Shown here piece after piece: positions 7,491 to 55,098 of a stretch of DNA of 64,000 nucleotides (positions are counted from its first letter, which is position 1; each line of letters begins with the position of its first letter). Both the position numbers and the translations under genes were made by a program. The notes beneath the pieces were generated by a model, which was not told the origin of the DNA, ran no database searches, and saw only the letters and a program-made list of their open reading frames with translations. This DNA is from Torpedo marmorata (taxonomy: Eukaryota): assembly GCA_977017645.1 (NCBI GenBank), contig OZ360257.1, positions 14,508,001-14,572,000 on the forward strand, read 5' to 3'.

Positions 7491-8395
7491 CTAACCTGCT
7501 CTCCATTGTAGTCCTGTCCCGGGGAACGTGCGGCCTCTCCAAAGGAGTGATTCGTTACATGGTAACCATGGCAGTTGCAGACACAATGGTCTGTGTGTTT
7601 AACGTTACTTTGGGAAACGTCTTCCGCTATTATTTTCCACGTTCCTTCCTGTCACGCACCTCCACTTGTCGTCTGATTACCATCATACAGAAAGCCAGCG
7701 TACAATTCTCTGTCTCGGTCACGGTATCATTTACAATCGACCGCTTCATTGCGATTTGTTGCCAGAAATTGAAAACAAAATATTGTACCAAAAGGAACGC
7801 CACGGTAATTCTAACGACGGTGTGTGTGCTTAGCTTTTTGATGCATATTCCAGCTTATTTCCAGTATGAACGCCAATACGTTGTGGGTGATGTCCAGTGG
7901 GGCTGCAGCACTATAACACAATATGTTTCTTCACCAGCATGGCAGACTTACAGATGGTTGTCCAATCTCTTGGTATCATATGTGCCGCTGCCGCTTATGT
8001 TGCTGTTAAATTCACTCACCGCCCGAAACATTTTACAGGTCAGCAGAGCTCGGAGGGCTTTGAAGCGCCGTGTGGACGGTGAGGTCCGTGATCCCGAGAT
8101 GACGAGCCGAAGAACGTCCATTATTTTGCTCTTCGCCATCTCTGGGACGTTCATAGCGTTGTGGACACCAGTTACGATAATTGACGTTTGTTTCCATCTC
8201 ACTGCAAATTTTGCAGTCGACGCCCCGACTTCAATCTATCTGGCCATTAGAATCGCACTTCTGCTAATGTATTTGAGTTCCTGTACAAACACTTGTGTTT
8301 ATGCATTGACACAGAGGAGATTCCGAAAGGAAGTGGCGAAGGTGTTAAAATATCCATTTATTGTCCTTGTTCGGTTTTTTAACCCAATTAAGTAG
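7491..8395 (+). CDS. GPR139-like class A GPCR, type A copy 1, exon 2 (spliced protein ~318 aa)
   Basis: Acceptor cttgttacag|CT at 7490/7491. Open frame with MAVAD (TM2), Cys at the top of TM3, DRF, WGC in ECL2, WTP (TM6), NTCVY (NPxxY variant) and a helix 8 FRKEV. The ANLL..LSRG.CGLSK pattern is typical of GPR139-like receptors. Confidence 0.9.
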
Positions 8396-8419
8396 CCACG
8401 ATGAATCAGAGTTCATGGA

Positions 8420-9015
8420 ACTGTTCCTCAGTTCGTTTCCAATTTCGACTCTTGACGTTTCTGAATCATCCGCGGTTTGGTAAGCCCCGTAAAACAATGC
8501 ACACCTCACACACCGTTCTCACACCAACATGTCTGTACATTGCCTCATGTGCTGCCCAAAAGGAGGCCATCTGCAAATTGGAGGAACACCACCTTATTTC
8601 CTGTCTTGGCTGTCTCAAGCAGACTTCATCAATATCGAATTGGAATTTCGGTTAACAACACCTCCCTGTGTCCATCTTCTTCCCTATCCCTCTGTCTCCT
8701 ATCCTACAGCCCCCTTGCCTTCGTTCTCCTATCACAGAGCTAGCACACACCTTTCACTTGTCAGCTTGTTTATCTTCTACTTTCCCACCTGTATAAATCT
8801 TACCTATTACCTGTTAGCCTGTGCTCCCCCACTTTCTCATCCTTTCCGCCGCTGCTCCCATCCCCCCACATCTTTTTAGATAGGCGCCTGCCTGTTTTTC
8901 TGCCTTAATCCCTATGAAGATCCCAGGCCTGAATGTTCGTTATCCTTTACTTTCTATTGATGCTGCGTGCCCTGTTGGGTTTCTCCATTAGCACAGCATC
9001 TGACGACTTTCTTTT
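8420..9015 (+). mobile_element. Old Penelope-like 3' fragment just downstream of type A copy 1 (homologues at ~25940-26500, 35000-35560, 42260-42860, 55120-55700)
   Basis: CKLEEHHLI.CLG remnant of the GIY-YIG C-terminus, a pyrimidine-rich tract, a degenerate hammerhead (cctatgaag..ccaggcctgaatgtt) and the gatgctgc..cctg.tg.gtttctcca tail. Confidence 0.75.
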
Positions 9016-9057
9016 TTAACTCTTATTTCTAATTCTTATCCTGAAGCTTTTCATAAG

Positions 9058-9235
9058 CAAGGTTAGCGGAGCGTTTATTGCAACATTTTCACAGCGCCAG
9101 AGACGCGGGTTCGAATCCAGCGCCGTCAGTAAGGTGTTTGTATATATTCCCAGTGTCCGGGTGGGTTTCTCCGGGTACTCCGGATTCCTCCCACTCTTCA
9201 AAAAGTACGAGTTCTGGGTTAATTGGGTTATTTGG
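9058..9235 (+). mobile_element. tRNA-derived SINE with V-domain (copies at ~26540-26720, 42897-43075, 55743-55920)
   Basis: A-box-like ggttagc..agcg, B-box GGTTCGAATCC, and the V-SINE core gtgggtttctccgggtactccggattcctcccac. Confidence 0.75.
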
Positions 9236-11057: not shown

Positions 11058-13790
11058 ACGAAGCGACTAGTAATTATACAGATTGAAAATATACTATCCT
11101 GTACTTGAAGAGTTTGTGGACCTGGGAAGCCATTTAACAACAGCTAAAACGGATTTGTACACTAATTTTAATGCACAGATTCTCCAACCGGCGCAATGCT
11201 CTTGTCAATTGGATAGACGCGTTGGCTTTGCTGAAGTAAGTGTGCAACTTTAAAGAAACAACTCCCAAGTGTTGGAGTTGTATTTCCATTTTTAACTTAT
11301 CACAATGCGGTGACATAAAGTTTAGTGAATTTATGGAAATAGTTGATCTTGTAGCTTTGCATGTGGATAAATAATTTTAATGGGCGGTGCGCAGCCAAAC
11401 CGGACACTCAGAAAGAATCCCCGCAGGCCGATCCAATATACGGAAGTATGGGTGCAATCCTGCTTCATAACAAAGCGATTTTGCACCGCTCACAAAAAAT
11501 GTAAGGTCCAGACTGGTGGCCTTTGTTTCCTCGACGTACCTACAGCTAAATGACTTGTTAGAGCAGGAGCGGAGCAACTTGATTGATCATATTGCAAACA
11601 GCAGCTACATAGACCTTCCCACTGCTCCACGCAGCTGCAGAGCGCGATAATAACCAGGCTGAAATACCATCCCAGGATCCAACATTATCCACAATTTTCA
11701 GAGGATTTGAGCATGTCTCATCGTCTGATTTTAACTACAATCGTGTCTACTATGCAGGAATAGCTTCCAAAGAAAGACTTTATAGAAACGCCAACAAGAA
11801 CAGCGTTTGGAGAGCTATGCGAAAAATTCCTAGGGCCTGGATGAATTTGCATTTGGAGAGAAGGATATTGATTAGGGATCGTTAGCATAACTTTGGTGAT
11901 GGCAGAGCATATCCAACGGATTTGGGGTGTCTTTCGAGGTGCGGCTGAAGGTGTCGATGAGTGTAGTGCAGGTGACGAATGTGACAAGAATTTCTGCACA
12001 CCCTTGACAAGTTTCTACATAATGCACTGGATCAAAACGACCACAGTTCATGGGATCTCAGGCAATTCGCAAGTTTGATTTCAATTTTGGCCTGGTAATA
12101 GAAGGTAATTGTTTATGATTGAACATAGAAAATAGAACAGTGTCGTGCTCACGGAATAACCTACACTACCAAGGGCCTAGAATTTCCCTCCGATGTAAAG
12201 CTAAATTTTTCTCAGTTCTATGTACATATCTAATCGTCTCTTAAACGATCCTCTTGTATCACTCCCAACACCGTTGCCGGCCGCACATTCCATTCACCCA
12301 CACCTCCACTCTCTGAGTGAAGAACGTACCTCTAACATCCCACTTGTACGTACTGCTAAGCCCCTTTCAACCTCATCCCCTACGCCGCCCCCCAGATGGA
12401 CGTTTGTCTTTGCGACTGGAAGCGTATCTTCCATCGGGAGAAAATGTCAAACTATAGGATGAACTATGCGGGTTNNNNNNNNNNNNNNNNNNNNNNNNNN
12501 NNNNNNNNNNNNNNNNNNNNNNNNNNNNNNNNNNNNNNNNNNNNNNNNNNNNNNNNNNNNNNNNNNNNNNNNNNNNNNNNNNNNNNNNNNNNNNNNNNNN
12601 NNNNNNNNNNNNNNNNNNNNNNNNNNNNNNNNNNNNNNNNNNNNNNNNNNNNNNNNNNNNNNNNNNNNNNNNNNNNNNNNNNNNNNNNNNNNNNNNNNNN
12701 NNNNNNNNNNNNNNNNNNNNNNNNNNNNNNNNNNNNNNNNNNNNNNNNNNNNNNNNNNNNNNNNNNNNNNNNNNNNNNNNNNNNNNNNNNNNNNNNNNNN
12801 NNNNNNNNNNNNNNNNNNTTTAAATTTCAGATTCCAGGTTTATTGTCAGAATGCATACACGACATCACATACAACCCTGTGATACTTTATTCCTGCGTGC
12901 GCGGCAGAATTACCACTAAACGGTAGTGCAAAACAAAATAACTGTACACCGCATGTGCATTTAAACAAATAAAAATCTTGAAACAGACAACGAATGTGAA
13001 CAAACTGACTGCGCAATACAGAGAGAATAAAAAAGAAAAGTAAAATCAATAAAGTGCACAAGTAACAGTCCTCAAAAGAGTCCCTGATTGAGTTTGTTGT
13101 TGAGGAGTCTAATGCTGGAGGGGTAGCAGCTGTTTATTTCCATTGACTGTTCCGTGTGGATAACTGTGGCTTTCACGGTTGATCGATTTGTTTCTATTTG
13201 TCACTACATGCGCCGAGCAAAATATTGCATTGAAACGAATGTGACTGTGGCGATAGCGATGGTGTTTTATTCAAGCTGTGGAGAAATCATCCCATACTAT
13301 ATTATTTACGAACCTCGCGAAGTCACTGATAACGTTGAAGGGTCGTGTTCTGTAAAATCAAGCTTCTCCACGTCACCCATTCGGGCAGCCTTTCTCTGAC
13401 TGGAAACGGTCTTGACCCCAATTGCTCCTCATGTATTAATCTTGCTTCTAAATTCCCTGACCATGAGATACATTATACTTGCTCACCGAGTGAAGAGAGA
13501 ATTCCGAGGAAGTAAAAGGAACGGGAATCGCACTGAACCAGAGACGAGGAAACACAGGAAATCGGTAAATCTGCTGCTCGTTATTACCCGCAATTTGATT
13601 CTCTTGTGGATGGTTCAGGAGTTTATTTATTCATCATCCCATTGTACCATGACAAACCGACGGAACAGCGTTCTCCAGTCCACTGTGCAGAACAGTGCAA
13701 GTCAGGCTTTAGACATCACACACATACAGACAAATCGTTACATGTATACACTGCATGTGTACATGTTTTAAAATAAATATTCGTAATAAA
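11058..13790 (+). pseudogene. Type B GPCR pseudogene, copy 2 (5' part of exon 2 deleted)
   Basis: Exon 1 remnant at 11058-11124 with a mutated donor. Exon 2 resumes at ~13129 (SVWITVAFTVDRFVSICH...) and carries stops and frameshifts. Confidence 0.78.
12475..12818. other. Assembly gap
   Basis: Run of N. Confidence 0.99.
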
Positions 13791-14569: not shown

Positions 14570-16782
14570 TTAGCCTGCCGAGGAACGCTGCAGAGTCGTC
14601 CTGCTGCCCGCCTGGGGATGGTACGAATTCTCCCGAGACCACCCCAGTGGAGCTCCGTAGATGAGTTCGGCCGAAGAGGTGTTGAGGTCCTCTTTGGGTG
14701 CCGTGAAGATGCTCAACAGCGCCCATGGTAGCTCGCTTACCCAGTTGGGACCTTGGAGTCTGGTCATGAGCGCGGTCTTGAGGTGCCTGTGGAAGCGCTC
14801 CACCAATCCATTGGACTGTGGATGGTAAGCTGTTGTGTGATGCAACTGGGCACCCCACAGGCTGGCGAGGTCGGACCACAGACTGGAGGTGAACTGGGCC
14901 CCTCTGTCGGATGTGATGTGGGATGGTAACCCGATCCGTGCCACCCAAGTCGAGATGAGGGCCCTGGGGAACGAGGTGTTGGACGTGTCTGCCAGCGGGA
15001 CTGCTTCTGGCCACCTGGTGAAGCGGTCGAACATGGTGAACAGATAGCAGAAAATCTGGGATACCGGCAAGGGTCCTACTATGTCCACGTGGATGTGGTC
15101 GAACCTTCGTTCTGCGAGCTCGAAGTGCTGAGGTGGGGTCTTGGTGTGCTGCTGTACCTTGTTTGTTTGGCATTGCGTGCACGCCTTCGCCCACCCGCTG
15201 ACCTGTTTCCGCAATCCATGCCACTTATATTTGCTGGCCACCAGCCGGACCGTGGTCCTGATGGATGGGAGAGCCAGTCCATGGATGGAGCCGAAAACCT
15301 GTCGTCTCCAAGCCGCCGGAACGATGGGTCTGACCTGACCGGTGGCCACGTCGCACAGGATGGTGGTGTTACCTGTGCCAACCGGGATGTCCTGGAGCTG
15401 CAGTCCCGATATGGCAGTCCTGTACTGGGGCATCTCTTCGTCTTTCTGCTGTGCCTCCGCCAGTGACATGAAGTCCTCTCCCTTTGATAGCGCGTGGATA
15501 CTTTGCCTGGACAGTGCGTCGGCCACCACGTTGTTCTTACCGGAGACGTGCCTTACATCTGTGGTGTACTCCGAGATGTAAGACAGGTGTCGTTGCTGGC
15601 GGGCTGACCAGGGGTCCGAGATCTTAGCCAAGGCGAAAGTCAGGGGCTTGTGATCTGTGAAAGCAGTGAAGGACCTGCCCTCTAGGAAGTACCTGAAGTG
15701 GCAGATGGCTAAGTACAGCGCCAGTAGCTCTCTGTCGAAAGCGCTGTACTTCAGTTCTGGAGGCCGCAGATGTTTGCTGAAGAAAGCCAGCGGCCGCAAA
15801 CGTCCTTCGATCTGCTGCTCCAGAACTCCGCCGATCGCCATTCCTGAGGCATCCACTGTCAGGGCCGTTGGAGCGTCAGACCTGGGAGGTGCCAGGAGAG
15901 TGGTGTCCGCCAGGGCTTCCTTGGCCTTCACGACGGCCTCCGCTGACTCCTCGTCCCAGGTGATGTCCTTCACCTTGCCTGCCATCCGGGCGAACAAGGG
16001 CCGCATGATCTGGGCAGCTGAGGGGATGAACCTGTGATAGAAATTGATCATCCCCACGAACTCCTGTAGTCCCTTGGTCGTGTTGGGTCTGGGGAATCTC
16101 CGGATGTCCTCCACTTTACTGGGTAGCGGTGTGGCTCCTTCCCTCGTTATCCTGTGGCCCAGGAAGTCGATGGCCTGCAATCCGAACTGACATTTGGCTG
16201 GGTTGATCGTCAGGCCGAACTTGTTCAGTCCAGTGTAGAGGTTGCGGAGGTGCGTCATATGCTCCTGTTGTTTCCTGCTCGCCACCAGGATGTCGTCAAG
16301 GTACACGAAGGTGCCATCCAGGTCTCGGCCCACCGCGTCCATGCGTCGCTGGAAGGTCTGTGCGGCGTTCATTTTCGCGAACGGCATCCGGAGGAATTCG
16401 AAGAGGCCAAACGTGGTGATGGTGGCGGTCTTGGGGATATCCTCGGGGTGTACCGGGATATGATGATATCCCCGGGCGAGGTGCACCTTGGAGAAGATCC
16501 TTGCCCCATGCAAGTTTGCCGCAAAGTCATGGATGTGCGGCATGGGGTACTGATGCGGTGTCGTGACCTCGTTGAGCCGGCGGTAGTCGCCGCATGGTCT
16601 CCAGCCCCCAGTTGCTTTGGGTACCATGTGCAGGGGAGAAACCCATGGGCTGTCCGACCGCCGTGCGATGCCGAGCTCCTCCCGCTTCCTGAATTCCTCC
16701 TTCACCAGCTTGAGCTTCTCCGGAGGAAGGCGTCTTGCCCTTGCGTGGAGCGGCGGGCCCTGGGTCAGGATGTGGTGCTGTA
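14570..16782 (-). CDS. pol: Gypsy pol fragment (reverse transcriptase - RNase H - integrase)
   Basis: WRPCGDYRRLN, FEFLRMPF and YLDD (RT); TVDAS...DRELLA...TDHKPL (RNase H); C..CQ zinc finger, HVDIVGPL, SDRGAQF and NGLVERFHR (DDE integrase). Confidence 0.9.
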
Positions 16783-16925
16783 ACGACCTCAGCAATTATG
16801 ATTCGACTTAATATATTTGCTGCAATGAAAATCTGTGACGAATGAGTATCATCATGTGTTCATGTGTCATCAGAGGTTTACTTTATTTATAAGTGAGGCA
16901 TTATTGTGAAGTCCAGTAAACTTAA

Positions 16926-19900
16926 ACGAAGCGACCAGTAATTTTACAGATTGAAAAAATACTATCCTATTCTTCAACAGTTGGTGGACATGGTAACATA
17001 ACGTAAGCTAAAACGGTTTTTTACTCGAATTTTAATACATAGCTCTTCCACCGGCGCAAAGCTCTTGTCAATTGAATAGACGCGTTGGTTTTGCTGAGTA
17101 ACATTAAAGAAACAACTCGCAAGTGTTGGAGTTGTATTTCCATTTTTAACTTATCAAAATGCGGTGACATAAAGTTTAGTGAATTTATGGAAATAGTTGA
17201 TCTTGCTGTTTTGCATGTGGATAAATAGTTTTTATGGGCGGTACGCAGCCAAACCGGACACTCAGAAAGAATCCCCGCAGGCAGATCCAATATACGGAAG
17301 TATGGGTGTAATGCTGCTTCATAACAAAGCGATTTTACACCGCTCATGATAACTTGAAGGCCCAGCCAGGTGGCCTTTGTTTCGTCGACTTACCTACAGC
17401 TAAAGGACACGTTAAAGCAGGAGTGGAGTAGCCTGATTCCTCATATTGCAAACAGCAGGTACATGGAGCTTCCCACTGCTCCACGCAGCTGCAGAGCACG
17501 ATATAAACTAGGCTGCAATACCATCCCAGGATCCAAAATTATCCACAATTTTCAGACGCTTTGAGCATGTCTCATCGTCTGATTTTAACTTCCACAGTGC
17601 CTACTATGCAGGAAGACCTTCTAAAGAAAAAAATCATATCAACGCCAACAAGAACACCGTCTGGAAATCTATTGGAAAATTTCCGAGGGCCAGGATGAAT
17701 ATCCACTTGGAGAGAAGGATATTGATTGGGCATAGTTAGCATAACTTTATTGATGGAAGAGCCTATCTAACCGATTTGGGGTTTCTTTCGAGGAGCGGCT
17801 AAAGGTGTCAATGAGAGTAGTGCAGGTGACAAAGTAGACAAGAATTTCTGCACACCCTTTACAATTTCTACATAATGCACTTGTTCAAAACGACCACAGT
17901 TCTTGTGATCTCAGGCAATTCGCAAGTTTGATTTCAATATTGGCCTGGTAATAGAAGGTAATTGTTTATGATGGAACATAGAAAATAGAACAGTGTAACC
18001 TACACTACCAAGTGCCAAGAATTTCCCTCCTGTGTAACGCTCAATTTTTTTTCTGTTCTATGTACGTATCTAATCGTCACTTAAAATATCATCTTGTACC
18101 TCTCCTAACACTGTTGCCGGCCGCACATTCCATGCACCCACCCCTCCAATCTCTGAGTGAAGAACGTACCTCTAACATCCCACTTGTACGTACTGTTAAG
18201 CACCTTTCAACCTCATACCCACGGCACCTCCCTGATGGATGGTTCTCTTTGCGATTAGAAGCATATCTTCCATCGGGAGAAAAGGTCAAACTATAGGATG
18301 AAATCTGCGGGTTCATNNNNNNNNNNNNNNNNNNNNNNNNNNNNNNNNNNNNNNNNNNNNNNNNNNNNNNNNNNNNNNNNNNNNNNNNNNNNNNNNNNNN
18401 NNNNNNNNNNNNNNNNNNNNNNNNNNNNNNNNNNNNNNNNNNNNNNNNNNNNNNNNNNNNNNNNNNNNNNNNNNNNNNNNNNNNNNNNNNNNNNNNNNNN
18501 NNNNNNNNNNNNNNNNNNNNNNNNNNNNNNNNNNNNNNNNNNNNNNNNNNNNNNNNNNNNNNNNNNNNNNNNNNNNNAGTTTTCAGAAATATTGTCAGAG
18601 TGCATACATGACATCACATACAACCCTGTGATACATTTTTCCTGCGGGCGCGGCAGAATTACCACTAATTGGTAGTGCAGAAGAAAATAACTGTACACAG
18701 CATATGCATTAAAACAAATAAAGAAGTTGAAACAGAAAACGAATGTGAACAAACTGACTGTGCAATACAGAGAGAATAAAAAAGAAAAGTAAAATCAATA
18801 AAGTGCACAAGAAAGAGTCCTTAAATGAGTCTCTGATTGAGTTTGTTGTTGAGGAGTCTGATGGTGGAGGGGTAGCAGCTGTTCCTTAACCTGGTGGTGC
18901 GAGTCTTGTGGCTTGTGTCTTGTAACTTGTGGGTGGAGATTGTGCAAGTTTAAGATCGACACTTTTCCTCAGGACCATGCATCATGTTCAGCTGAGCGTG
19001 ATCAAGCTTTGGCCCCTGATGTCAGGAGAGATGGATCTGATCTCGGCTCCCATACAACATCAGCACAATAAAAGTAAAGGCGCACAAGTCTCAGCTGAGC
19101 GAACGCTCGAAGTCCAATCGCGCTAACACCACTATCTTAATACTACAAGACACACGTGGTTCAATAATTATATAATTGCAGCAAATAAAGAAATTTCTGT
19201 TGTTCTGTGCCTCAGATCAGAGAACATTATTAATCTTAATCTCCGTGTTCTGCAGCTAATTTGCTGCCAATCTTCATTCTGCTCCCTGGAAATTGTGGCC
19301 TCTCTAAATGCATCCCCCGGTATTTGCTGCGAACGGCAGTAGCTGACTGAATGGTTGTTACATTTGATCTGATTTTGTGCGAGATTATTGATGGATATTT
19401 TACACACTCGTTCTTCAATCCGACACCTGTTTGTAGAGTTATTCTGACCATGCTGTTTATTTCCATTGACTGTTCCGTGTGGATAACTGTTCCTTTCACG
19501 GTCGATCGATTTGTTTCTATTTGTCACTAAATGCAACGAGCAAAATATTGCATTGAAAACTGTAGCGATAGTGATGGTATTTTACTCAATCTGTGGAGAA
19601 AACATCCCATACTATTTAATTTACGAACTTCGCGAAGTGTCCTGTTCTGTAAAATGAAGCTTATTCACGTCACCCATTCGGGCAGCTTTTCTCTGCTGGA
19701 AACAGTCTTGACCCCATTTGCTCCTAATGTATTGATTTACTTCTAAGTTCCCTGACCATGAGACACATTATACTTGCTGACCGAGTGACGAGCGAATTCC
19801 GAGGAAGTAACAGGAACGGGAATCGCACTCACCCAGAGACGACGAAACACAGGAAATCGAAAAATCTGCTGCTCGTCATATCTCGCAACTTGATCCTCTT

Positions 19901-21972: not shown

Positions 21973-22024
21973 ATGGACGCCACGGAGATATTCTATCCCA
22001 TTCTTGCAATTGTTGGCATTCCTG
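21973..22024 (+). CDS. GPR139-like GPCR type A copy 2, exon 1
   Basis: ATG at 21973, MDATEIFYPILAIVGIP, donor gtaagt at 22025. Confidence 0.85.
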
Positions 22025-25010: not shown

Positions 25011-25912
25011 CTAACCTGCTCTCCATTGTGGTCCTGTCCCGGGGAATGTGCGGCCTCTCCAAAGGAGTGACTCGTTACATGGTAACCATGGCAGTTGCAG
25101 ACACAATGGTCTGTGTGTTTAACGTTATGTTGGGAAACGTCTTCCGCTATCATTTACCGCGTTCCATCCTGGCACACACCTCCACTTGCCGTCTGGCAGC
25201 CGTCATAGAGAGAACCAGCGTACAATTCTCTGTCTCGTCCACGGTATCATTCACAATCGACCGCTTCATTGCCATTTGTTGCCAGAAATTGAAAACAAAA
25301 TATTGTACCAAAAGGAACGCCGCGGTGATTCTAACGACGGTGTGTGTGCTTAGTTTTTTGATGCACATTCCAGCTTATTTCCAGTATGAACTCCAGTACG
25401 TTGTGGGTGATGTCCAATGGGGCTGCCGTACTATAACACAATATATTTCTTCACCAGCATGGCAGACTTACAGATGGTTGTCCAATATCTCGGTATCATA
25501 TGTGCCACTGCCGCTGATGTTGCTGTTGAATTCTCTCACCGCCAGACACATTTTACAGGTCAGCAGAGCTCGGAAGGCTTTGAAGCGCCGTGTGGACGGT
25601 GAGGTCCGTGATCCCGAGATGACGAGCCGGAGGACGTCCATTATCTTGCTTTTCGCCATCTCTGGGTCCTTCATAGCGTTGTGGACACCGGTTACGATAA
25701 TTGGCCTTTTTTCACAATTCACCGCACAGTTTGCGATCGACGCCCGGAAATCACTGTACCTGGCAATTAGAATCTCGATTCTGCTGATGTATTTGAGTTC
25801 CTGTGCAAACACTTGTGTTTATGCATTGACACAGAGGAGATTCCGGGAGGAAGTGAGGAAGTTGTTAAAATATCCATTTATTGTCCTAGTTCGGTTTTTT
25901 CAAACCAATTAA
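25011..25912 (+). CDS. GPR139-like GPCR type A copy 2, exon 2 (~317 aa spliced)
   Basis: Acceptor ttacag at 25010; intact 7TM frame (ORF 25028-25912) with DRF, WTP and NTCVY. Confidence 0.9.
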
Positions 25913-33377: not shown

Positions 33378-33429
33378 ATGGACGCCACGGAGATCTTCTA
33401 TCCCATTCTTGCAATTGTCGGCATTCCTG
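33378..33429 (+). CDS. GPR139-like GPCR type A copy 3, exon 1
   Basis: ATG at 33378, MDATEIFYPILAIVGIP, donor gtaagt at 33430. Confidence 0.85.
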
Positions 33430-34073: not shown

Positions 34074-34966
34074 CTAACCTGCTCTCCATTGTAGTCCTGT
34101 CCCGGGGAATGTGCGGCCTCTCCAAAGGAGTGACTCGTTACATGGTAACCATGGCAGTTGCAGACACAATGGTCTGTGTGTTTAACGTTACTTTGGGAAA
34201 CGTCTTCCGTTATAATTTTCCGCGTTCCATCCTGGCACACACGTCCACTTGCCGTCTGGCAGCCGTCATGCAGAAAACCAGCGTGCAATTCTCTGTCTTG
34301 TCCACGGTATCATTCACAATCGACCGCTTCATTGCTATTTGTTGCCAGAAATTTAAAACTAAATATTGTACCAAAAGGAACGCCGCGGTGATTCTAACGA
34401 CGGTGTGTGTACTTAGCTTTTTGATGCACATTCCAGCTTATTTCCAGTATGAACTCCAGTACGTTGTGGGTGATGTCCAATGGGGCTGCCGTACTATAAC
34501 ACAATATATTTCTTCACCAGCATGGCAGACTTACAGATGGTTGTCCAATATCTTGGTATCATACGTGCCACTGCCGCTGATGTTGCTGTTGAATTCTCTC
34601 ACCGCCCGACACATTTTACAGGTCAGCAGAGCTCGGAGGGCTTTGAAGCGACGTGTGGACGGTGAGGTCCGTGATCCCGAGATGACGAGCCGGAGGACGT
34701 CCATTATCTTGCTTTTCGCCATCTCTGGGTCCTTCATTGCATTGTGGACACCGGTTATGATAATTGGCCTTTTTTCCCAATTCACCACAGGGTTTGCAAT
34801 CGACGACCGGAAGTCACTGTACCTGGCAATTAGAATCTCGATTCTGCTGATGTATTTGAGTTCCTGTGCAAACACTTGTGTTTATGTATGGACACAGAGG
34901 AGATTCCGGGAGGAAGTGTCGAAGTTGTTAAAATATCCATTTATTGTCCTAGTTCGGTTTTTCTAA
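34074..34966 (+). CDS. GPR139-like GPCR type A copy 3, exon 2 (~314 aa spliced)
   Basis: Acceptor ttacag at 34073; intact frame to TAA at 34966, ending 3 residues earlier than copy 2. Confidence 0.88.
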
Positions 34967-37900: not shown

Positions 37901-38318
37901 GCGGGTCTAAAATACATCGGACTCTCATAGGAACGCTAATAGAAGCGACGAAGTCAGTGCAGACGCATTGAAATGTGACCAAATCCCCTCAGAGACGAGG
38001 ATAAATCGAAGCAAAGGGAGATGGATAAACGCGACACTCCGGTGCCACGGATCAAGGTCACGTGTGGCAGCGAGCTCGCACCTGAACTTTGTTTATTGCG
38101 ATCCCTCGGGTCAATTACTGTGCGTCGAGCTAACTCAGTTCATAAATTTAGAATGAATTGGTACTGTCTGTTAAATCGAGTATGTGGAGATGTTATGTAA
38201 TTTAATGTCCCAGTGGAAACGGCTGTCCTATAAATTGGGCTTCATAGTGAATCTCTTCGTTCTGGCACGTGGACCTCTGCTGCATAGAAAACGTTCCTAT
38301 CCTCATACGATGCCAGGA

Positions 38319-41300
38319 ATGGACGCCACGGAGATCTTCTATCCCATTCTTGCAATTGTCGTCATCCCTGGTACGTGCTTTTTCTGGGATCTCCGACGTT
38401 TGGTTCCAGTTTGTCCGTATTCAGGAGGAGTATCCCATCTTTACCGCGTGTAGTAATTACTGCAGATTGGTCCACGTTTCATTTACATGGAGAGAACTGT
38501 TTCATGATTTGCTGCCTCTGCCACCATCTGCCACAGAGCGGCTCTGACTGGGACAGAAAAAGACAACGTTGGTCAGACGTCGGCCTGTCAGAATGAGAAT
38601 AATCATTGGACCTGAAGTTGTTGAATATAAGGCATGTCCTGTCGTTGGAAAATAAGACAGACGACCTCAGAGCCAGAGTGCTTCAGCAGCGACAGGTGAG
38701 ACAAATCTCAGTGGTTTACTGCCCTGAGTCAGGGCTAACAGAGAACATATCAGACGCCGCGTTCCGACCAGAGGTTATCATCATTCACAGACTGGACAGG
38801 GACCCGGATTCTGGCAGAGGCATTGGGCACAGTGTGTGGTTTTCAGTTAATATTATCTGGTTCACGGATGTTGGGGTAATGTCGACCACATGTCGAACAT
38901 TGTCTAGTCCTCCTGCACCCTGGGCGTCTTTTAGACCATTGCTCTACTCGCTTTACATCTACGAATGCGTGACTCGGTAGGACATAAACTAAATTAATCA
39001 CAAATACGCTGGCAATACAACATTAGTGTGTTGTATCGAAAGGGGAGATGAGTCAGCATACAGGATGGAGATTGAAAACATGACTGAATGGTGTATCAAC
39101 AACTACCTCTCACTCAAGGTCACCAAAACCCAAGAGCTGATTCTAGGAAATAAGAAAGGAAAAGAGGTGGAGAGATTCCACAAATTTCAAATCATGGGAG
39201 TCACAAACTCGAAGGACATTTTCTGGACACAACATACATATGTCGTCGAGAAGAAAGTACGTCAACTCCTCCACATACTCTGGAGTTTGCCGAGGTTTGC
39301 AGTCAGAGTTGGTAAACTTCGGCAGATGTGTAGCGTAAATTGTTCGGACCGGCTGCATTACGGCTGGCAATGGGGATACCAATATCTATAAGCGCAAAAG
39401 CCCTTCAAATGTTACTTTACACAGAACAGTACATCAGAAGCAAATCTCTCCCCATCATCGAGAAAATCTACATGGAACGCTGCAGTCGGAGAGCAGCAGC
39501 AATCATCAAGAATCTTCCCCAACCACACCACTCTGCTCTCGATGCTGCCATCAGGAAAGAGGTGTAGCTGCCACAATAGTGGTACTACCATGACCAAGAA
39601 CAGTGGGTATCCCTCCCCCATCAGACTGCTAAACAGACTCAATCAGAGACTCTTTCAAGGACTCTTATTTGCACATTATGAATGACAACATTTATTTTTT
39701 CAGTATTTACACATTCAGTTTGTTTACATTTCTTTCTTTGCTTTCTTTTGTGTCCAGTTATTTTCCTTGAGAACTGTTCACACAATCGATAAGTAGAAAT
39801 TCTGCCTTGTCCACAGGGAAAAAAAAAGAATCTCATGGTTGCATTTGATGTCATGTATGTACGCTGACAATATACTTGAAACTTGAAGGGGATGACACTC
39901 ACCAGCTGCTCTCCTTTTGGTGGGACAATTCATGCAAATGGTTTGTGGTCGGAGCCAACTTTCAGTTCGGATGTTCCACGGATTCGTGGTATCGGATGTT
40001 GAATATGCAGTCGACCAATCCAGTTTTCCTTCGCACATCGTAATCCATCTATTAAACATATAACACCGAACAGTACAACACCTCCACGATGTTGTGATGA
40101 CCTCTGTATACCTCATCTACAACAACCGATTTTCTCCACCTCCAACCATAACTATCTATTTTTCTAACACTCATGCACCTATCTAAGTGTGTTTTAAATA
40201 TCGCTGCCTTACCCGCCTTCACCACTAAGCCGTGCAATAAATTCCAGGGGCCCAACATTTTTGAGTAAAACAAAAACGTATCTCCGACATCTCCTCTAAA
40301 CTCTCCTCTACTCACCTAAATCAGATTTCATATGATATTTGCTATCTTTGCCCCAAGGGAAAAGTGTTGGCTGCCCAACCCATCCAGACTCCTCATAATC
40401 ATGTATACCCCTATTAATGCACCTCTTACTCTTTGTCGCTCCGAGAAAGCCCTAGCCCTGCAACCGTCCTTCACATGACGAGTTCTCCAATCCACGCATC
40501 AACTTTTCACCCTCTCCAGAGTATCTTCATCCTTCCTATAATGAGGAAACCGGAACTGAAACAACGTATTGAACTATTGATCCTCACGTGTACGGAGAAA
40601 AGTGAAAAGGTATTGTTTTGAGCGCTATCCAGTCAAATCAACCCACACAGTATACAGCAGACAGTGTAAGGGTAAAACATATGACAGGCGATAGTGTTAT
40701 AATGAAAGTACAACATGTCGTGTTAAAGTCAAAAGTGTTGTTAAGCAGTGTAAGGCATTACCTTTACTCATGAGCGGGCTATTCAAGAGCCTGTCAGCAG
40801 GAAACAAAGTTCCATTGAATCTAGTGCGGAGCGGTTTCTGAAACTCGTGCATTTTTAGTCAGACGGGAGTGAGAAGGGGATAGTGCGCTCGGGGTGGAAT
40901 TGATACTTTGACATGTAGACTGATTAATTATCTCCGATGTGGCCGGAGACACGAACGGAGTCGATGGAGGGAAGAGAGGCCTGTTTGATAATCCTCAATT
41001 GCGTTCATTACTCTCCTTAGTTTCCTGAAACCCCGTGAAGAACAGTTTCCACGGTAATCTGCGATACACAGGCACCGGACAGTTACTACTGTGCATCTGC
41101 ACACAACGGTCAGGGTCAACGGGGGCATGCCGAATTTTCTCATCTTCTGAGGAAATGGAGGCGTTGCTGCGTTTTCAGTTCAGTTGCGCCAGTGTAATGT
41201 CAGAAACGGAATCACTTACAGGATCTTAAAAATGATCAGGTGAGATTGTTGCCAAATATTCCACAGTTAAAATCACGTTAAAGCTGTTGGCCTGTTTTTC

Positions 41301-42246
41301 TGGTAGTTTCCTGGTTTTCCATCTTGTTACAGGTAACCTGCTCTCCATTGTGGTCCTGTCCCGGTGAATGTTCGGCCTCTCCAAAGGAGTGATTCGTTAC
41401 ATGGTAACCATGGCAGTTGCAGACACAATGGTCTGGGTGTTTAACGTTATGGTGGGAAACGTCCTCCTCTATCATTTTCCGGGTTCATTCCTGGCACACA
41501 CCTCCACTTGCCGTCTTACAGCCATCATGCAGTGATCCAGCGTGCAATTCTCTGTCTGGGCCACGGTGTCATTCACAATCGACCGCTTCATTGCATTTGT
41601 TGCCAAAGATTCAAAACAGAATATTGTACCAAAAGAAACGCCGCGGTGGTTCCAACGACTGTGTCTGTGCTGAGCTTTGTGATGCACATTCCAGCTTATT
41701 TCCGCTATGAGCCCCATTACGTTGTGTGTGATGTCCAATGGGGCTGCCGTACCGTACCACAATACATTAATTCACCAGTATGGCAGACTTACAGATAGAT
41801 GTCTAAACTCATGTTACTACTGGTGCCACTGCCGCTGATGTTGCTGTTGAATTCTCTCACTGCCCGACACATTGTACTGGTCAGCAGAGCTCGGAGAGCT
41901 TTGAAGCGCCGTGGGGACGGCGAGGTGAGTGATCCCGAGATGACGAACGGGAGGACGTCCATTATTTTGCTCTTCGCCACCTCTGGCACCTTCATAGCGT
42001 TTGTGGACACCGGTTACGATAATTGAACTATGTTTCCAACTCACCTCCAGTTTTGCGATCGACGCCCCGACGTCACTGTATCTGGCAATTAGAATCGCGA
42101 TCCTGCTGATGTATTTGAGTTCCTGTACAAACACTTGTGTTTATGTATTGACACAGAGGAGATTCCGGGAGGAAGTGAAGAAACTGGTGAAATATCCATT
42201 TATTGTCCTTGTTCGGTTTTTAAAACAAATTAGGCAGCCACAATGA
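38319..42246 (+). pseudogene. GPR139-like GPCR type A copy 4, pseudogene
   Basis: Exon 1 at 38319-38370 (donor gtacgt); exon 2 from 41333. In-frame TGA at 41365 and 41533, TAG near 41796, and frameshifts near 41594 and 42000. Confidence 0.9.
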
Positions 42247-44899: not shown

Positions 44900-47800
44900 G
44901 TAAATCACGAAAATCTGCAGACACCGTGGTTGAAGTAAACAACACAAATGCTGGAGAAACTTAGCAGGCCAAACAGTGTCTTTTATGTAGCAAAGGTAGA
45001 AATACATAACCGAAGTTTCGGGCTTGATCCCTTTATCAAAGTATGAGAAAATGCCAGCAGGCGCCCGAACAAAAGAGTGAGGGGGGAACGGGGTGGCAAA
45101 GGCAGGAGATGATAGGTGCAGAAAGGAGGTAGGGGTCAGCAGCAAAGAGAGGGAGGAGGGAATGCTGGGTAGGTGGAAAAAAACTGGAAGGACAGGTAAG
45201 GGGGAGGGGCAGGAAAAGGCAAGCAGGTTTAGTGGAAAGAAGAAAAGTCAATGTCAATGCCATCTGGCTGGAGAGTGCCCAGACGGAACATAAGATGTTG
45301 TTCCTCCAATTTGCGGGTAGTCTGTGTGGGATTGTACATAAGGCCATGGAAAGACATGTGAGCGTGGGAGTGTGACTCGGAATTGAAATGGCTGGCTTCT
45401 GGGAGGTCGCTGTTGTTGATGACGGAGAAGAGGTGCTCAGCGAAGCGATCTCCCAATCTACGACCGGTCTCTCCGATGTAGGAAATGCCACAAAGGGAGC
45501 ACCGGATGCAATAAATAAGTTATCTGGATGTACAAGTGAAGTCCAGCTTCACTTGAAAGTCCTGTTTGGGGCCCCGGACTGTGGTGAGTGGGGAGGTGTG
45601 GGCGCAGGTGTTGCACCTCCTGCGGGCACAGGGGAAGGTTCCGGGGGTGCGATGGGTTCGGGAGGGATGAGTGCACGAAGCACTCGGAGCAAGTGGTCCC
45701 TGCGGAAGGCCAAGAGGGGAGGAGAAGGAAAAACGTGTCTAGTGGTGGGTTCCTGCAGTAAGTGCCGGAAATTCCGGCGGATAATGTGATGGCTGCGGAG
45801 GCTGGTGGGGTGGTAGGTGAGGATGAGGGGGATTCTATGTTTGTTGCATCTAGGGGCAGAGGGGGCCAGGGCAGATGAGCAGGAAATGGAGGAGATACGG
45901 GTGAGGGCTGAGTTGATGGTGGTGGAGGGGATACCACGTTTGTGGAAGAAGGCAGACATTTCAGAAGGTCTGGACTGGAAGACCTCATCTTGGGAACAGA
46001 TGCGGTGGAGACGGAGAAATTGAGAGAAGGGGATTGAATCCTTAAAGGGGACAGGGTGTGAGGAAGTGTAGTCCAGATAGTTGTAGGAGTTGGAGGGTTT
46101 GTAGTAAACGTCTGTGGAAAGCTTGTCTCCCGAGATGGACACAGAGAGATCCAGGAAGGGGAGAGTGTTATCGGAGATGGACCAGGTGAGTTTGAGATCG
46201 TGGTGGAACATGGACGCGAAGTGGATGAAGATGTCACGCTCATCACGGGTGCATGATCAGCCCCAATGTAGTCGTCGATATACCGGAAGGAGAGATGAGG
46301 GGTCTTGCCTGTGTCGGCTTGCAGCATGGATTGCTCCACAAAGCCCACAAACAGGCTTGCATAGCTGGGACCCATGCGGGTACCCATGGCTATTCCTTTG
46401 ATTTGGAGGAAGCGGGATGAGTTAAAGGAGAAGTTATTGAAAGTGAGGACAAGTTCTGCCAGGCGAAGGAGGGTGGTGGTAGAGGGTGACTGGTCGGGTC
46501 TTTGGTCCAGGAAAAAGCGAAGTGCTTTCAGACCTTCTGTGTGGGGGATAGAGGTATAAAGGGATTGGACACCCATAGTGAAGATGATGCAGTCCGGTTC
46601 AGGGAATGTGAAGTCTATGAGAAGGTGGAGGGCATGTGAGGTTTCGCGGATGTTGGTGGCGAGGGATTGGACCAGGGGAGAAAAGATGGAGTCAAGGTAA
46701 GATGAAACTAGTTCGGCGGGGCAGGAGCAGGCAGAAACAATGGGTCTGCCCGGATGGTTGGGTTTGTGTATCTTGGGTAGAAGGTAGAAACGGGCAGTGC
46801 GGGGGTGGTGGCCGTGGAGGGGAGGTGACCGAAGGTGATGAAGTCGGAGATGGTGCTGGAGACAGTGGCTTGATGTGTAGTGATGGGGTCCTGTGGGAGG
46901 GGTCGGTAGGAGGAGGTGTCTGAGAGCTGTCGACTGGCCTCGGCAAGGTAGAGGTCAGTGCGCCAGACCACAACCGCACCGCCCTTGTCTGCGGGTTTGA
47001 TGGTGAGGTTGGGATTGTTGCGGAGAGTGTGGAGGGCAGAGCGCTCTGAGGAGGTGAGGTGGGAATACGAGAGGGGGGTGGTGAAGTTGAGACGGTTGAT
47101 GTCTCGGCGGCAGTTGGAAATAAAAAGGTCCAGAGCGGGCAGCTGGCCAGGACGAGGTGTCCAGGAAGAGGAAGAAGGCTTGAAGCGGGAGAAAGGGGGG
47201 TGCAGAGTCACGGTCATGGAAGTGAGCCCGGAGGCGGAGGCGACGGAAGTAGAGTTCGGCGATGAGGTCTTCCAGTCCAGATATTCTGATATGTCTGCCT
47301 TCTTTCTCAAACGTGGATTCCCCTCCACCACCATCAACTCAGCCCTCACCCGCATCTCCTCCATTTCCCGCTTATCTGCCCTGGCCCCCTCTGCCCCCAG
47401 ACGCAAACAACTTAGAATCCACCTCAGCCTCACCTACCACCCCACCAGCCTCCACATCCAACATATTATCCGCCGGAATTTCTGGCACTTACTACAGGAT
47501 CCCACCACCAGACACATTTTCCTTCTCCTCCCCTCTTGGCCTTCCGCAGGGACCGATCCCTCCGCGCCTCCCTCGTGCACTCATCCCTCCCCACCCATCG
47601 CACACCCGGCACCTTCCGCTGTGCCCGCAGGATGTGCAACACCTGCGCCCACACCTCCCCCGTCACCACGGTCCAGGGCCCCAAACAGGCCTTTCAAGTG
47701 AAACTACACTTCACTTGTACATCCAGAGAACTTATTTACTGCATACAGTGTTCCCTTTGTGGCGTTCTCTACATCGGAGAGACCGGTCGTAGATTGGGAG

Positions 47801-48285
47801 ATCGCTTTGCTGAGCACCTCCTCTCCGTCTGCAACAACAGCGACCTCCCAGTAGCCAAACATTTCAATTCCGAGGCACACTCCCACACTCACATGTCTGT
47901 CCATGACCTTATGTACTATCCCACCCAGGCTACCCGCAAATTGGAGGAACAACATCTTATTTTCCGTCTGGGCACTCTCCACTTGCCTTTTCCTTCCCCT
48001 CCCCCCTTACCTTTCCTTCCAGTTTTTTCCACCCACCCAGCCATCCCTCCTCCCCCTCTTTGCTGATGACCCCTCCCTCCTTTCTCCACCTATCATCTCC
48101 TGCCTTTGCCACCCCCTTCCCCCCTCACTCTTTTGTTCGGGCGCCTGCCGGCATTTTCTCATACTTTGATGAAGTGCTCAAGCCCTAACAATACTACATA
48201 AAATACTCTGTTTGACCTGCTGAGTTTCTCCAGCATTTGAGTTTTTTACTTCAACCACGGTGTCTATAGATTTTCGTGATTTGCT
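44900..48285. mobile_element. Penelope-like element (PLE; RT plus GIY-YIG), inverted-tandem insertion
   Basis: Minus-strand RT (SLYTSIP, KGIAMGTRMGPSYA, RYIDD, FLDL) and GIY-YIG. A plus-strand copy of the 3' part runs from 47261 (LIYCIQCSLCGVLYIGETGRRLGDRFAEH). Flanked by the 14-bp direct repeat TCAACAATCAGCTC (44886-44899 and 48286-48299). Confidence 0.9.
45005..45045 (-). ncRNA. Degenerate PLE hammerhead ribozyme motif
   Basis: Reverse complement CATACTTTGATAAAGGGATCAAGCCCGAAACTTCGGTTATG, homologous to 28311-28351 with core mutations. Confidence 0.5.
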
Positions 48286-51344: not shown

Positions 51345-52336
51345 AAAAATCATAGCTGTTATATTTCTGCGCGCTGTGACTTCACTCGGGATTCCCAACG
51401 CGAAACGTCGACTGACCCTTTCTCTCCACGGATGCTGCCTCACTCGCTTGTAAACATCGCCACATCCGAGCAGAGTGCAGGCCCTTCAACCTACGATGTT
51501 GTGCCGCCCGCTGCAGAGTAAAAGTACGCCACGACCATCTAATTTTCCCCAACTCACACTCACAACACTCTTTGAATCCTTCCAGTTACTCCCTATTCAA
51601 CAAATATTCCAGCATCTGCAGTTCTTGTGGTTTCTCGTTTCTTATAATTTAATCATTCACACGCATCTCCTTCATCACCCTTTTCCTTATCTCTATCGCA
51701 GGATGGGGCATCTCATCGCACCATCACCGCCTTCTCCCGTTGACGTTTGTTGGTGTGGCGCATTCAATCGAAATGTTCAATTCTCGGCTGTTACTTTTCT
51801 GACCCCTGGTTCAGCTTCGCGTAACGTTCTGTTCTCTTTGGCAGCCGTTGAAATGAAAGAAAGAATTCACCTGTCCCTGAATGAGACAGACTTTGGGATG
51901 ATGATGGATCGCACCTGACAAATTAGATTCACGTGTCGAAATAATGCATCAGAATATCAGATGAACCCCAATAGAAACGACGAGCACAGGAAGTCTTATA
52001 AAAGTGGGACCACATACCCTCAAAGAAGAAGCAAATGTGAAGCAAAGGGAGATGGATGAACGCGAAACTCTGGTCCCATGGTTCTAGGTCACGTGTGGCA
52101 GCGAGTTCGCACCTGAACCTTGTTTGTTACAATAACACTTGTTCATTGCTGTGAGCGGAGCAATGTCAGTTCATTAATTTAGAATGACCTGGTTCTCTTA
52201 AATCGCGTATGTGGAAATGTTATGCAATTTAATGTCCCAGTGGAAGCGGCTGCCCTATAAATTATACTTCACGGTGAATCGCATCGATTTGGCACCTGGA
52301 CCTGTGCTGTACAGAAAACGCTCCTATCCCCAAAAG

Positions 52337-52397
52337 ATGCCACGAATACAAGCCACGGAGATCTTCTATCCAATTCTTGCAATTGTTGGCATTCCTG
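52337..52397 (+). CDS. GPR139-like GPCR type A copy 5, exon 1 (MPRIQATEIFYPILAIVGIP)
   Basis: The ATG used by other copies is ATA here; an in-frame ATG lies 3 codons upstream at 52337. Donor gtaagt at 52398. Confidence 0.75.
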
Positions 52398-54196
52398 GTA
52401 AGTGATTTTGCTGCGATCTCCGCCGTTTGGTTCCTGGTTGTCCGTATTCCGGAGTAGTATCCACTCTTTACCGCGTGTACTAATCACTGCACATTGATCC
52501 GATTTTAATTTACGCGAGAACTGTTGCATGATTTGCTGCTTCTGCCGTCACCCGACACAGAGCGGTCCTGACTGGGATCAAGAGAGAGAAAGTTGGTCAG
52601 CCGTCGCCCTGTCAGGATTTGAAGAATCATTTAACCTGAAATTGTTGAAGGTGGGCAATGTCCAGTCATTGGAAAATAAAACCGGCGACCTCAGAGCAAA
52701 GCTGTTTATCACACACTGGTGAGACAAATCTCGGTTGGTTGCTGTCCTGAGACGTGGCTCACAAAGAACACAACGGACTCTACGATCCGTCGAGATGTTT
52801 TCATCATTCACAGACTGGACGTGAACCTGGATTCTGGCAGGGTGAGAGGGCATGGTGCGCGCATTTCAGTTAATATCCGTTGGTGCATGGACGTTCGGGT
52901 TATGTCGCCGCCTGTTCCATTGCCTCATAGCAAATACCCATCTAATGAAAACCCTTCAATATACCCCGAGATTTCTCATCAGTGATTCTCTCCGGTGTCT
53001 ATCTCCTTCCCGATGACGATTACAAACAGGCACTTGCGGAGCTGCAGAGGGTGGTCAGTAAACAAGCGACGGCCCATCCCGAGTCACCTCAAATCACAGT
53101 CGGTGACTTCAACCGGGCCCCTCTGAAGAAACCCCAACAGAATTATCACTAGCACGTAACCTGCTGTACCAGAGGTACCAGCAAATTTGATCAATGCGAC
53201 GACAACATGAGGAAGACCTGTCGTTCTTTCACGACACCGCATTGTAGTGTTTGCTGTCCTCCCCATCTAAATCCCTCATCATCTTGTCTACCCCCAATAA
53301 TTCACCTCTTACCCTTCGTCGCTGCAAAGAGAAAAACCCTAGATCTGTCAGCCTTCCTTCATATGAAATGTTCTCCAATCCAGGCAACACCTTTCCACCC
53401 TCTCCAGACCACCAACATCCTATAAGCAGGCGTCCGGAACTGAACGCAACGTATTGAACTGTTTATCGTCAGCTGTACGGAGAAAAGTGAAAAGGCGTTG
53501 TTTTGCGATCTATCCAGGCAAATCAACCCACACAAAATACAGCAGACAGTTCATGGATAAACATATTACAGGTGATAGTGATACAATTAAATACAGCATA
53601 CCGAGTTAAAGACAAAAGTGCATTACCTTTACTCATGAGATGTCCATTCAAGAGACTGGCAGCAGGAAAATAAGTGCCCTTGAATCTAGTGGGGTGCGAT
53701 TTTTTTCTAAATTCGTGCTTATTCTGCCAGACGGGACTAAGAAAGAGATAGTGCGATCGAGGTGGAATTGATACTTTAACATGTGAACTGATTATTTACC
53801 CCGAGACCGGGGGAGGTAAGGACGGAGTCGATGGACGGGAGGGTGGCCTGTTTGAAAACCCTGAATTGCTTCCATTACTCTCCCAATTTCTTAAGACCCC
53901 GAGCAGAGCAGTTTCCACACCAATCTGTGATGCACCCGCACCGGACACTTTCTATTATTTTTCTGCACACAACAGTCAGTGTCAATAAGGCCAGGCCGAA
54001 TTTCCTCAGCTTATGAGGAAGTGGAGGCGTTGCTGCATTTTCCGTTCCGTTGCGCCAGTGTAATGTCAGCAACTGCATCATTTACAGGGACATACAAATT
54101 ATACGTTAGATTATTCCCAAGGAATCCGTAGTTTAAAACCCGTTAAAGCTGTTGGATTTTTTTCTGATAATTTCCTGATTTTCCATCTTGTTACAG

Positions 54197-55098
54197 CTAA
54201 CCTGCTCTCCATTGTGGTCCTGTCCCGGGGAATGTGCGGTCTGTCCAAAGGAGTGATTCGTTACATGGTCACCATGGCTGCTGCAGGCACAATGGTCTGT
54301 GTGTTTAACGTTGCGGTAGGAAACGTCTTCCGCTATCATTTTCCCGATTTATTCCTGGCACACACCTCCACTTGTCGTCTAACATCCTTTACACAGAGAT
54401 CCAGCGTGCAATTCTCTGTCTGGGCCACGGTATCATTCACAATCGACCGCTTCATTGCCATTTGTTGCCAGAAATTGAAAACCAAATATTGTACCGAAAG
54501 AAACGCCGCGGTGATTCTAACGACGGTGTGTGTGCTTAGCTTTTTGATGCACATTCCAGCTTATTTCCAGTATGAACTCCATTACGTTGTGGGTGATGTC
54601 CAATGGGGCTGCCGTACTATAACACAATATCTTTCTTCACCAGCATGGCAGACTTACAGATGGTTGTCCAATCTCGTTTTATCATTTGTGCCACTGCCGC
54701 TGATGTTGCTGTTGAATTCTCTCACCGCCCTGCACATTTTACAGGTCAGCAGAGCTCGGAGGGCTTTGAAGCGCCGTGTGGACGGTGAGGTCCGTGATCC
54801 CGAGATGACGAGCCGAAGGACGTCCATTATTTTGCTCCTCGCCATCTCTGGGACGTTCATAGCGTTGTGGACACCGGTTACGATAATTGAACTATGTTTC
54901 CAACTCACCTCAAGTTTTGCTATCGACGCCCCGATGTCACTGTACCTGGCAATTAGAATCGCGATCCTGCTGATGTATTTGAGTTCCTGTACAAACACTT
55001 TAGTTTATGCATTGACACAGAGGAGATTCCGGGAGGAAGTGACGAAGCTGTTAAAATATCCATTTATTGTCCTAGGTCGGTTTTTTAAAACCAATTAA
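54197..55098 (+). CDS. GPR139-like GPCR type A copy 5, exon 2 (~320 aa spliced)
   Basis: Acceptor ttacag at 54196; intact 7TM frame (ORF 54214-55098). TM2 reads MAAAG instead of MAVAD. Confidence 0.87.

Follow-up and report, generated by a model that had tools for sequence, protein, structure and literature searches.

Divergence on the extracellular half of a GPR139-like receptor array in Torpedo marmorata: probable relaxed constraint and gene conversion rather than strong positive selection

GPR139 is a single conserved gene. The accessible text of a review links it to the invertebrate sex-peptide/MIP (myoinhibitory peptide) and FMRFamide receptors (PMC12208981), and that of a survey describes GPR210A/B and other GPR139/142-related orphans, with extra subtypes in gar, coelacanth and teleosts (PMC6504862). 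Tandem receptor repertoires have been described for systems such as the lemur vomeronasal type 1 receptors (V1Rs), for which, in the available part of PMC3914689, positive selection versus drift is debated. Here we analyzed a window of Torpedo marmorata DNA, that is, the whole stretch of 64,000 nucleotides at positions 14,508,001 to 14,572,000 (forward strand) of contig OZ360257.1, assembly GCA_977017645.1. This 64-kb window contains five copies, all on the + strand, of a gene with two exons that encodes a class A member of the G-protein coupled receptors (GPCRs); the copies are part of a much larger array of GPR139-like genes.

The copies belong to a tandem array of recent origin, made up of GPR139-like class A receptor genes with two exons each, which likely serves as a ligand-sensing repertoire. 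An initial annotation, made from the window alone, had noted that paralog differences concentrate on ligand-facing segments and had read them as diversifying selection on the binding pocket with conserved G-protein coupling. Our preferred reading, with a probability of roughly 0.55, is a repertoire with a conserved core and a near-neutral, tolerated rim shuffled by gene conversion. The change in the outer half is likely due to relaxed constraint and gene conversion, not to strong positive selection.

At the gene level, exon 1 contributes the N-terminus, which is very short, plus half of the first transmembrane helix (TM1), ends in a phase-1 donor and sits 0.6-3 kb upstream of exon 2, which encodes the remainder; the initial annotation had covered exon 2 alone. 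The gene copies are spaced as repeat units of about 9-17 kb. Copies 1, 2, 3 and 5 give open spliced products of 318, 317, 314 and 320 amino acids. The features, with intracellular and extracellular loops abbreviated ICL and ECL and residues in generic class A numbering, are as follows:

4530..4581, + strand: coding part of exon 1 in copy 1 (short N-terminus plus the first half of TM1; donor G/GTAAGT, phase 1)
7491..8395, + strand: copy 1 exon 2 (TM1 end to stop), intact, clade G; PF00001 at E=2.4e-23
7562..7612, + strand: identical tract common to copies 1 and 3 (codons 24-40), candidate conversion tract; permutation p=0.0125
7667..7720, + strand: copy 1, variable segment of upper TM3 (3.25-3.42); counterparts at 25187, 34250, 54373
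7739..7870, + strand: copy 1 DRF-ICL2-TM4, near-identical in the four window copies, variable family-wide
7961..7981, + strand: copy 1, variable segment of upper TM5 (5.42-5.48); counterparts at 25481, 34544, 54667
8057..8131, + strand: copy 1 ICL3-TM6 start, without differences among the four window copies; the mid-loop drifts family-wide
8177..8233, + strand: copy 1, variable segment of TM6-ECL3 (6.53 to 7.30); counterparts at 25697, 34760, 54883
21973..22024, + strand: copy 2 exon 1
25011..25912, + strand: copy 2 exon 2, 317 amino acids, intact, clade F
33378..33429, + strand: copy 3 exon 1, followed by an intron reduced to 644 bp
34074..34966, + strand: copy 3 exon 2, 314 amino acids, intact, clade F
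38310..38370, + strand: copy 4 exon 1
41333..42237 (3' end approximate), + strand: copy 4 exon 2, pseudogene (early stop, more stops, two frameshifts)
52337..52397, + strand: copy 5 exon 1
54197..55098, + strand: copy 5 exon 2, 320 amino acids, open frame, conserved D2.50 replaced by Gly, clade H

For the genome as a whole, the copy 1 protein matched at least 131 places, all on one contig (C80, 14.14-16.72 Mb, a span of 2.6 Mb) and nearly all at 76% identity or more (the range quoted for the array is 77-93%); with 131 of 8280 candidates scored, this number is a lower bound. A distant family member used as query gave 123 further matches on more than 40 other contigs. Our data set comprised 130 of the 131 matches (one partial match was left out) and copy 4, which that list lacked. 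Exon 2 and its acceptor were intact in 120 of these 131 copies and broken in 11, the latter again a lower bound, since the search favours intact copies. After collapsing identical sequences, the intact set came to 104 different sequences at the DNA level and 99 at the protein level, aligned over 289 codons, and the selection tests used exon 2 only. Exon 1 was present in 20 of 20 extra upstream regions, and was found within 4.5 kb for only part of the other loci. The locus is a large tandem birth-and-death array with pseudogenes, as in chemosensory-type repertoires, and its copies form nine clades, with the window copies in F (2 and 3), G (1) and H (5).

At the protein level, the variable peptides that the initial annotation had quoted from TM3, TM5 and TM6-ECL3 were letter-exact in copies 1, 2, 3 and 5 (12/12), and the three it had called invariant were exact in 11 of 12 checks, copy 3 having L>F in ICL2. 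Exon 2 differs at 61 of 289 positions among these four copies, including 25 of 44 in the segments described as variable and 1 of 64 in those described as invariant. As these segments had been picked by eye, we also applied a topology split into an outer and an inner half: 39 of 122 outer positions differ vs. 22 of 167 inner ones (Fisher p=1.4e-4), and silent-only differences are even (14/83 vs. 24/145, p=1.0). Clades A-E, which contain none of the four copies, repeated the contrast more weakly, with a nonsynonymous rate (dN) over the gene-wide synonymous rate (dS) of 0.97 (0.62-1.36) for the variable and 0.54 (0.37-0.73) for the invariant segments.

Among the 104 distinct sequences, omega (dN/dS) was 0.68 (0.61-0.82) in the outer half and 0.39 (0.33-0.45) in the inner half, which is under purifying selection at an omega of about 0.4; synonymous rates were 4.59 and 4.63. 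The extracellular half has changed roughly twice as fast as the intracellular one. The outer and inner values on terminal, shallow and deep branches were 0.70/0.48, 0.61/0.34 and 0.76/0.37 (Fisher p=0.036, 0.0006 and 0.0009), and the gap persisted in a tree-free analysis. The private changes of the 11 pseudogenes fell 35 in the outer and 35 in the inner half (p=0.23), with no outer hotspot. Paralog sets of six further genera of sharks and rays show their variation at these sites too (pooled rho 0.43; outer half 1.26 vs. inner half 0.81, p=6e-5). The outer half exceeded the inner in 6/6, although pocket positions exceeded non-pocket ones in only 4/6; in this comparison the electric-ray set nests within the clades of the array and is not independent, and the two bamboo-shark sets are interleaved. 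Thus, the concentration of amino-acid change on the extracellular half was borne out, and the equal synonymous rates together with the pseudogene changes exclude a higher local mutation rate as its cause. Divergence at the ligand-binding face, as in a receptor repertoire, was found in the form of this outer vs. inner contrast.

The conserved inner face was confirmed in part. The DRF motif, the cytoplasmic ends of TM5 and TM6 and helix 8 are kept, whereas the invariance of ICL3 and TM4 holds for the window copies only: family-wide, the majority residue stays below 90% at 10/22 TM4 and 7/25 ICL3-TM6 positions, and ICL3 drifts, with an omega of 0.6-1.2 across family-wide pair sets. The window copies are close relatives of one another.

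Across the array, a deep core is near-fixed (N2.57, Q3.37, V3.40, W5.35, Y5.38, R/K5.39, W6.48, R7.36 and Y7.43); of the 99 proteins, 89 have Q3.32 and 85 have D6.55, and both 3.25 and ECL2 have a Cys. The variable rim comprises 2.61, 2.65, ECL1 codon 50, 3.28, 3.29, 3.33, 4.60, 5.42, 5.46, 6.52, 6.58, 6.59, ECL3 codons 238-242, 7.32 and 7.39. Rim changes often alter charge, as at 3.33 (V/K/I/R), 6.55 (D/G), 5.43 (K/N), 2.61 (R/T/G) and 2.65 (R/L/H/G). The numbering was anchored on motifs, with the TM4 anchor uncertain by one, and side-chain facing was assigned from the numbering, not from coordinates. The pocket list joined 26 class A positions, taken from a list reportedly given by Surgand et al. 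in 2006, and 12 added after the variability table had been inspected.

These proteins are class A (rhodopsin-like) GPCRs: PF00001, the helices and the motifs (DRY-like, D2.50, the 5.50 and 6.50 prolines, NxxxY and helix 8, copy 5 being without D2.50) all match. An AlphaFold2 model of exon 2 (mean predicted local distance difference test score 87.6) contains the end of TM1, six full helices and helix 8. GPR139 was the best match among solved structures by sequence (E=5.2e-14), and human GPR139 the top fold match (7vug; E=8.8e-10, template modelling score 0.70, 22% identity). The 119 named matches among the 120 listed of 213 were all from sharks, rays and skates, the closest of those listed being electric-ray proteins at 72-77% identity that nest among the array clades. 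Most relatives carry the database name 'probable G-protein coupled receptor 139', and atlas clusters so named score 0.96; a cluster resembling FMRFamide receptors was also among the near atlas matches. The array nests within these shark and ray paralogs, as a member of the elasmobranch GPR139-like family would. Despite this kinship, the 22% identity and the array form argue against orthology of the genes with GPR139.

The agonist contacts named for GPR139 in the available text of PMC8807744 are mostly replaced: R6.51, E3.32, F3.33, H5.42 and N7.39 correspond to V, mostly Q, V/K/I/R, S/T and I/L. Because these contacts, R6.51 included, are mostly gone, the ligand likely differs from that of GPR139. 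In ICL2, copy 1 codons 91-92 (window 7763-7768) correspond by count to P34.50-L34.51 in GPR139, and the family has Q/H and K/Q there. Loss of a hydrophobic residue at 34.51 would suggest Gi-type or atypical coupling.

For the site models, we used our own MG94-type implementation with scaled nucleotide-tree branch lengths rather than PAML or HyPhy. The initial annotation had expected dN/dS above 1 at pocket residues and had proposed an M7/M8 comparison, which was significant in its standard form: likelihood-ratio test (LRT) statistics reached 20-22 for M1a/M2a, 38-39 for M7/M8 and 24-26 for M8a/M8, with omega around 2 at 8% of sites. The flagged sites were rim positions and also 2.40, 4.50 and one ICL3 codon. 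When whole-codon rate variation among sites was modelled, the fit was much better and the LRT dropped to 0-0.8. According to the accessible text of Davydov et al. (bioRxiv 10.1101/174839), such variation can raise the M8 false-positive rate above 50%.

In our simulations without selection, the standard LRT was 13.5-54.3 in 7/7 with codon rate variation and at most 1.2 in 7/7 without it. The rate-aware test kept its power, with LRTs of 15-27 for omega=2 and 36-96 for omega=3 at 8% of sites plus rate variation (4/4 simulations each). The real data fell where simulations without selection but with rate variation fell, with an M8 LRT of 23.8 (vs. 13.5-54.3), a rate-aware LRT of 0.0 (vs. 0-4.9) and a gain from rate variation of 72.5 (vs. 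39-78); this gain was -0.3 to 1.9 in simulations of true selection without rate variation. In the rate-aware null fit, the omega=1 class took 58% of the outer sites and 0% of the inner ones, so that about half of the outer positions are near-neutral. Since the rate-aware LRT was 0-0.8 where simulated omega=2 gives 15-27, a pervasive class with omega at or above 2 on 8% of the sites is excluded. Positive selection at pocket residues was therefore not supported in the form first proposed, and the M7/M8 result proved misleading once controlled for rate variation, its signal being mimicked by all seven simulations that had rate variation but no selection. Site-model fits on segment trees (LRT 19.2 and 8.9) lay at the scale bound and are unreliable.

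Gene conversion, for which the initial annotation had also proposed a test, is strong in the array, and copies are mosaic. Incompatibility between sites increased with distance (p=0.001), and five segment trees gained 978 log-likelihood units (lnL) vs. 330-401 in 7/7 non-recombining simulations. Globally significant tracts were found in 15 of 5256 pairs and lay in the inner as well as the outer segments; among the window copies, 1 of 6 pairs was significant. At about codons 207-287, two copies of clade A have clade-D sequence. In comparisons between several clades, divergence at four-fold sites is roughly half that of the intron (A-D 0.105 vs. 0.205), and within clade D it is four times that of the intron (0.060 vs. 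0.015); therefore the exon has been both homogenised and shuffled. The Tyr and Leu forms of codon 249 (7.32) differ at three bases, and a switch back between them is seen in copies bearing the haplotype of another clade, so this codon was swapped by conversion. CpG four-fold sites changed about twice as often as others (3.8 vs. 1.7-2.0 steps), and local dS in the window copies was higher in the segments first described as variable (0.22 vs. 0.14).

Several results weigh against the reading of a near-neutral, conversion-shuffled rim. A tract test on silent sites only found none in 3044 pairs (54 sites, low power). Fine-scale conversion would be the source of the codon rate variation, which may, however, itself stem from selection in favour of imported codons. 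Two candidates for a sole source were tried and rejected: an explicit CpG term did not absorb the rate variation (its best multiplier of about 2 gained 5 lnL), and a coarse five-segment mosaic null failed to reproduce the M8 signal (LRT 0-4.6 in 6/6). In rate-aware tests of 10 partitions, the uncorrected LRT was 4.3 with pocket and loops taken together (51% of sites at omega 1.33), 4.0 in the loops and 3.25 over the class A pocket list, none surviving correction, and 0.0 for the non-pocket outer helix, the inner half and the intracellular loops; weak hints of omega 1.3-1.5 are left in pocket plus loops. An episodic branch-site mixture gave an LRT of 22 for all sites, 20 for the outer half and 0-2.3 for the inner half (nulls at most 1.3 in 3/3), and still 9.9 with a 2% multi-base rate. 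Finally, pocket-facing and other outer-helix positions showed no significant per-site difference (p=0.13-0.25; 11/38 vs. 13/52 positions in the four window copies), and therefore 'pocket' is no sharper a description than 'outer half'.

These results leave room for weak or episodic diversifying selection on the pocket entrance, in which new rim residues are favoured and partly imported by conversion while the core stays fixed; we regard it as possible but lean against it. Besides the significant standard models and the confinement of the partition hints to pocket and loops and of the episodic signal to the outer half, tree-free omega was about 1.0 over the 38 pocket positions, many invariant ones included, vs. 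0.53 at other outer-helix positions. On the stem of clade F, the clade of copies 2 and 3, the outer half underwent 13.7 replacement vs. 3.3 silent changes, including the block 6.52-6.60, and this subtype is old, since electric-ray proteins group with clade F and share G6.55. However, the stem ratio (omega about 1.4) is based on 17 changes, none of the regions, when set against its own dS, gave a confidence interval lying above 1, and the rate-aware M8 test stays far below what omega=2 would give. The episodic LRT falls to 3.5 when codons 249 and 50 (ECL1) are removed under the 2% multi-base rate, codon 249 being the one that switches repeatedly, on shared haplotypes. Weak or episodic selection is compatible with the data, and strong diversifying selection is not supported.

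A less constrained extracellular half is a general property of class A receptors. The array could then be a dosage array in which all copies read one ligand and rim changes leave specificity unaltered, and the conserved deep core, an omega not above 1 and the similarity of pocket and non-pocket outer positions would all fit. We consider this unlikely: the subtypes are old and common to another ray, a concerted dosage array is expected to be more uniform than 77-93% identity, and the rim swaps charge at GPR139 ligand contacts (those in the accessible text of PMC8807744) or class A pocket-lining positions. Least probable is that mutation hotspots or conversion tracts alone made the pattern under equal constraint in both halves. 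Strong conversion, the CpG sites and the raised local dS would speak for such an artefact, but it is already largely refuted by the equal synonymous rates, by significant tracts in inner and outer segments alike and by the recurrence of the pattern in other genera. Moreover, the private replacement:silent ratio of pseudogenes is the same in both halves (28:4 and 28:3), and that of intact singletons is not (65:28 and 72:46).

Under the preferred reading of a conserved core with a tolerated rim, selection would maintain the signalling machinery and the deep polar core, and the predicted pocket entrance would drift at about the neutral rate and be reshuffled by gene conversion, its diversity being tolerated rather than strongly driven. 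The core may read a chemical group common to one ligand class, putatively small peptides or amino-acid derivatives, as kinship to GPR139 and to invertebrate peptide receptors suggests. The rim would tune selectivity, and all copies would feed a common G protein. A bolder proposal is a large shark and ray sensory or surveillance repertoire from the GPR139/sex-peptide-receptor lineage, with selected pocket-entrance residues, short cassettes swapped by conversion and a fixed polar core, giving address-like diversity for peptide or amino-acid ligands; we find it rather doubtful.

Other features of the locus were observed. In the copy 3 intron (window 33430-34073), about 2.3 kb were lost and both splice sites retained. 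The D2.50 to Gly change of clade H (copy 5, window 54280-54290, +, and the identical copy L011) lies in an otherwise intact frame and may change sodium binding or activation. Clade D loci (L034, L037-L039, L047, L051, L060, L063 and others) often have two exon-1 copies 350 bp apart before one exon 2, which may provide alternative N-termini. Many identical exon pairs lie about 145 kb apart between C80:16280518-16425636 and 16425636-16570000 (such as L031/L032, L040/L041 and L092/L093), reflecting either a segmental duplication of very recent date or a duplication in the assembly. A second GPR139-like subfamily, which is older, is represented by broken copies at window 1785-2460, 13130-13770, 19250-19750 and 30640-31330 (+); they are 33-44% identical to copy 1, have a Heterodontus protein as best named relative (45-52%) and travel within the repeat unit, upstream of the intact genes. 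A GC-rich insert at 14570-16795 (-) holds a 741-codon open pol frame of a long-terminal-repeat retroelement (reverse transcriptase, RNase H, integrase; Gypsy-like order). The interval 44900-48280 between copies 4 and 5 holds a pair of decayed reverse-transcriptase elements, inverted, about 85% identical and next to each other.

A bias of divergence towards the pocket is familiar from tandem GPCR paralogs, and the strong selection claim fails proper controls here, making the array a clean case where the usual M7/M8 test would yield a misleading positive. The noteworthy part is the family itself: hundreds of intact orphan receptors in sharks and rays, animals thought to have few odorant receptors. 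Our literature searches, whose coverage left out most subscription papers, found no paper describing this elasmobranch family. The PMC6504862 survey lists no cartilaginous fish, its searchable text having neither 'cartilaginous' nor 'Callorhinchus', and reports no large array, and a term search did not find GPR139 in the main text of the catshark genome paper (PMC11979771). The split into core and rim provides a concrete residue list and divergent copies for ligand screening and expression work.

Compared with human GPR139 (PDB 7VUG/7VUI/9M42; PMC8807744) and GPR142, the array receptors share the class A fold and W6.48, but they are only about 22% identical to GPR139, differ from the aligned GPR139 in having Cys at 3.25 and in ECL2, and form an array of more than 130 genes instead of a single one. 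The elasmobranch 'probable GPR139' gene models (automatic NCBI/UniRef names) belong to the same family and are unstudied automatic annotations; other species show separate small expansions of the subfamily in a database clustered at 90%, vs. at least 131 copies in one place here. Although the array differs from the V1R, odorant receptor and trace amine-associated receptor repertoires in its lineage (the peptide-receptor side of class A), in having two exons instead of being intronless and in that omega above 1 is not established, it has the very short N-terminus of chemosensory GPCR repertoires, and its genes are likewise duplicated in tandem, include pseudogenes, undergo gene conversion and differ between paralogs at the face that binds ligand.

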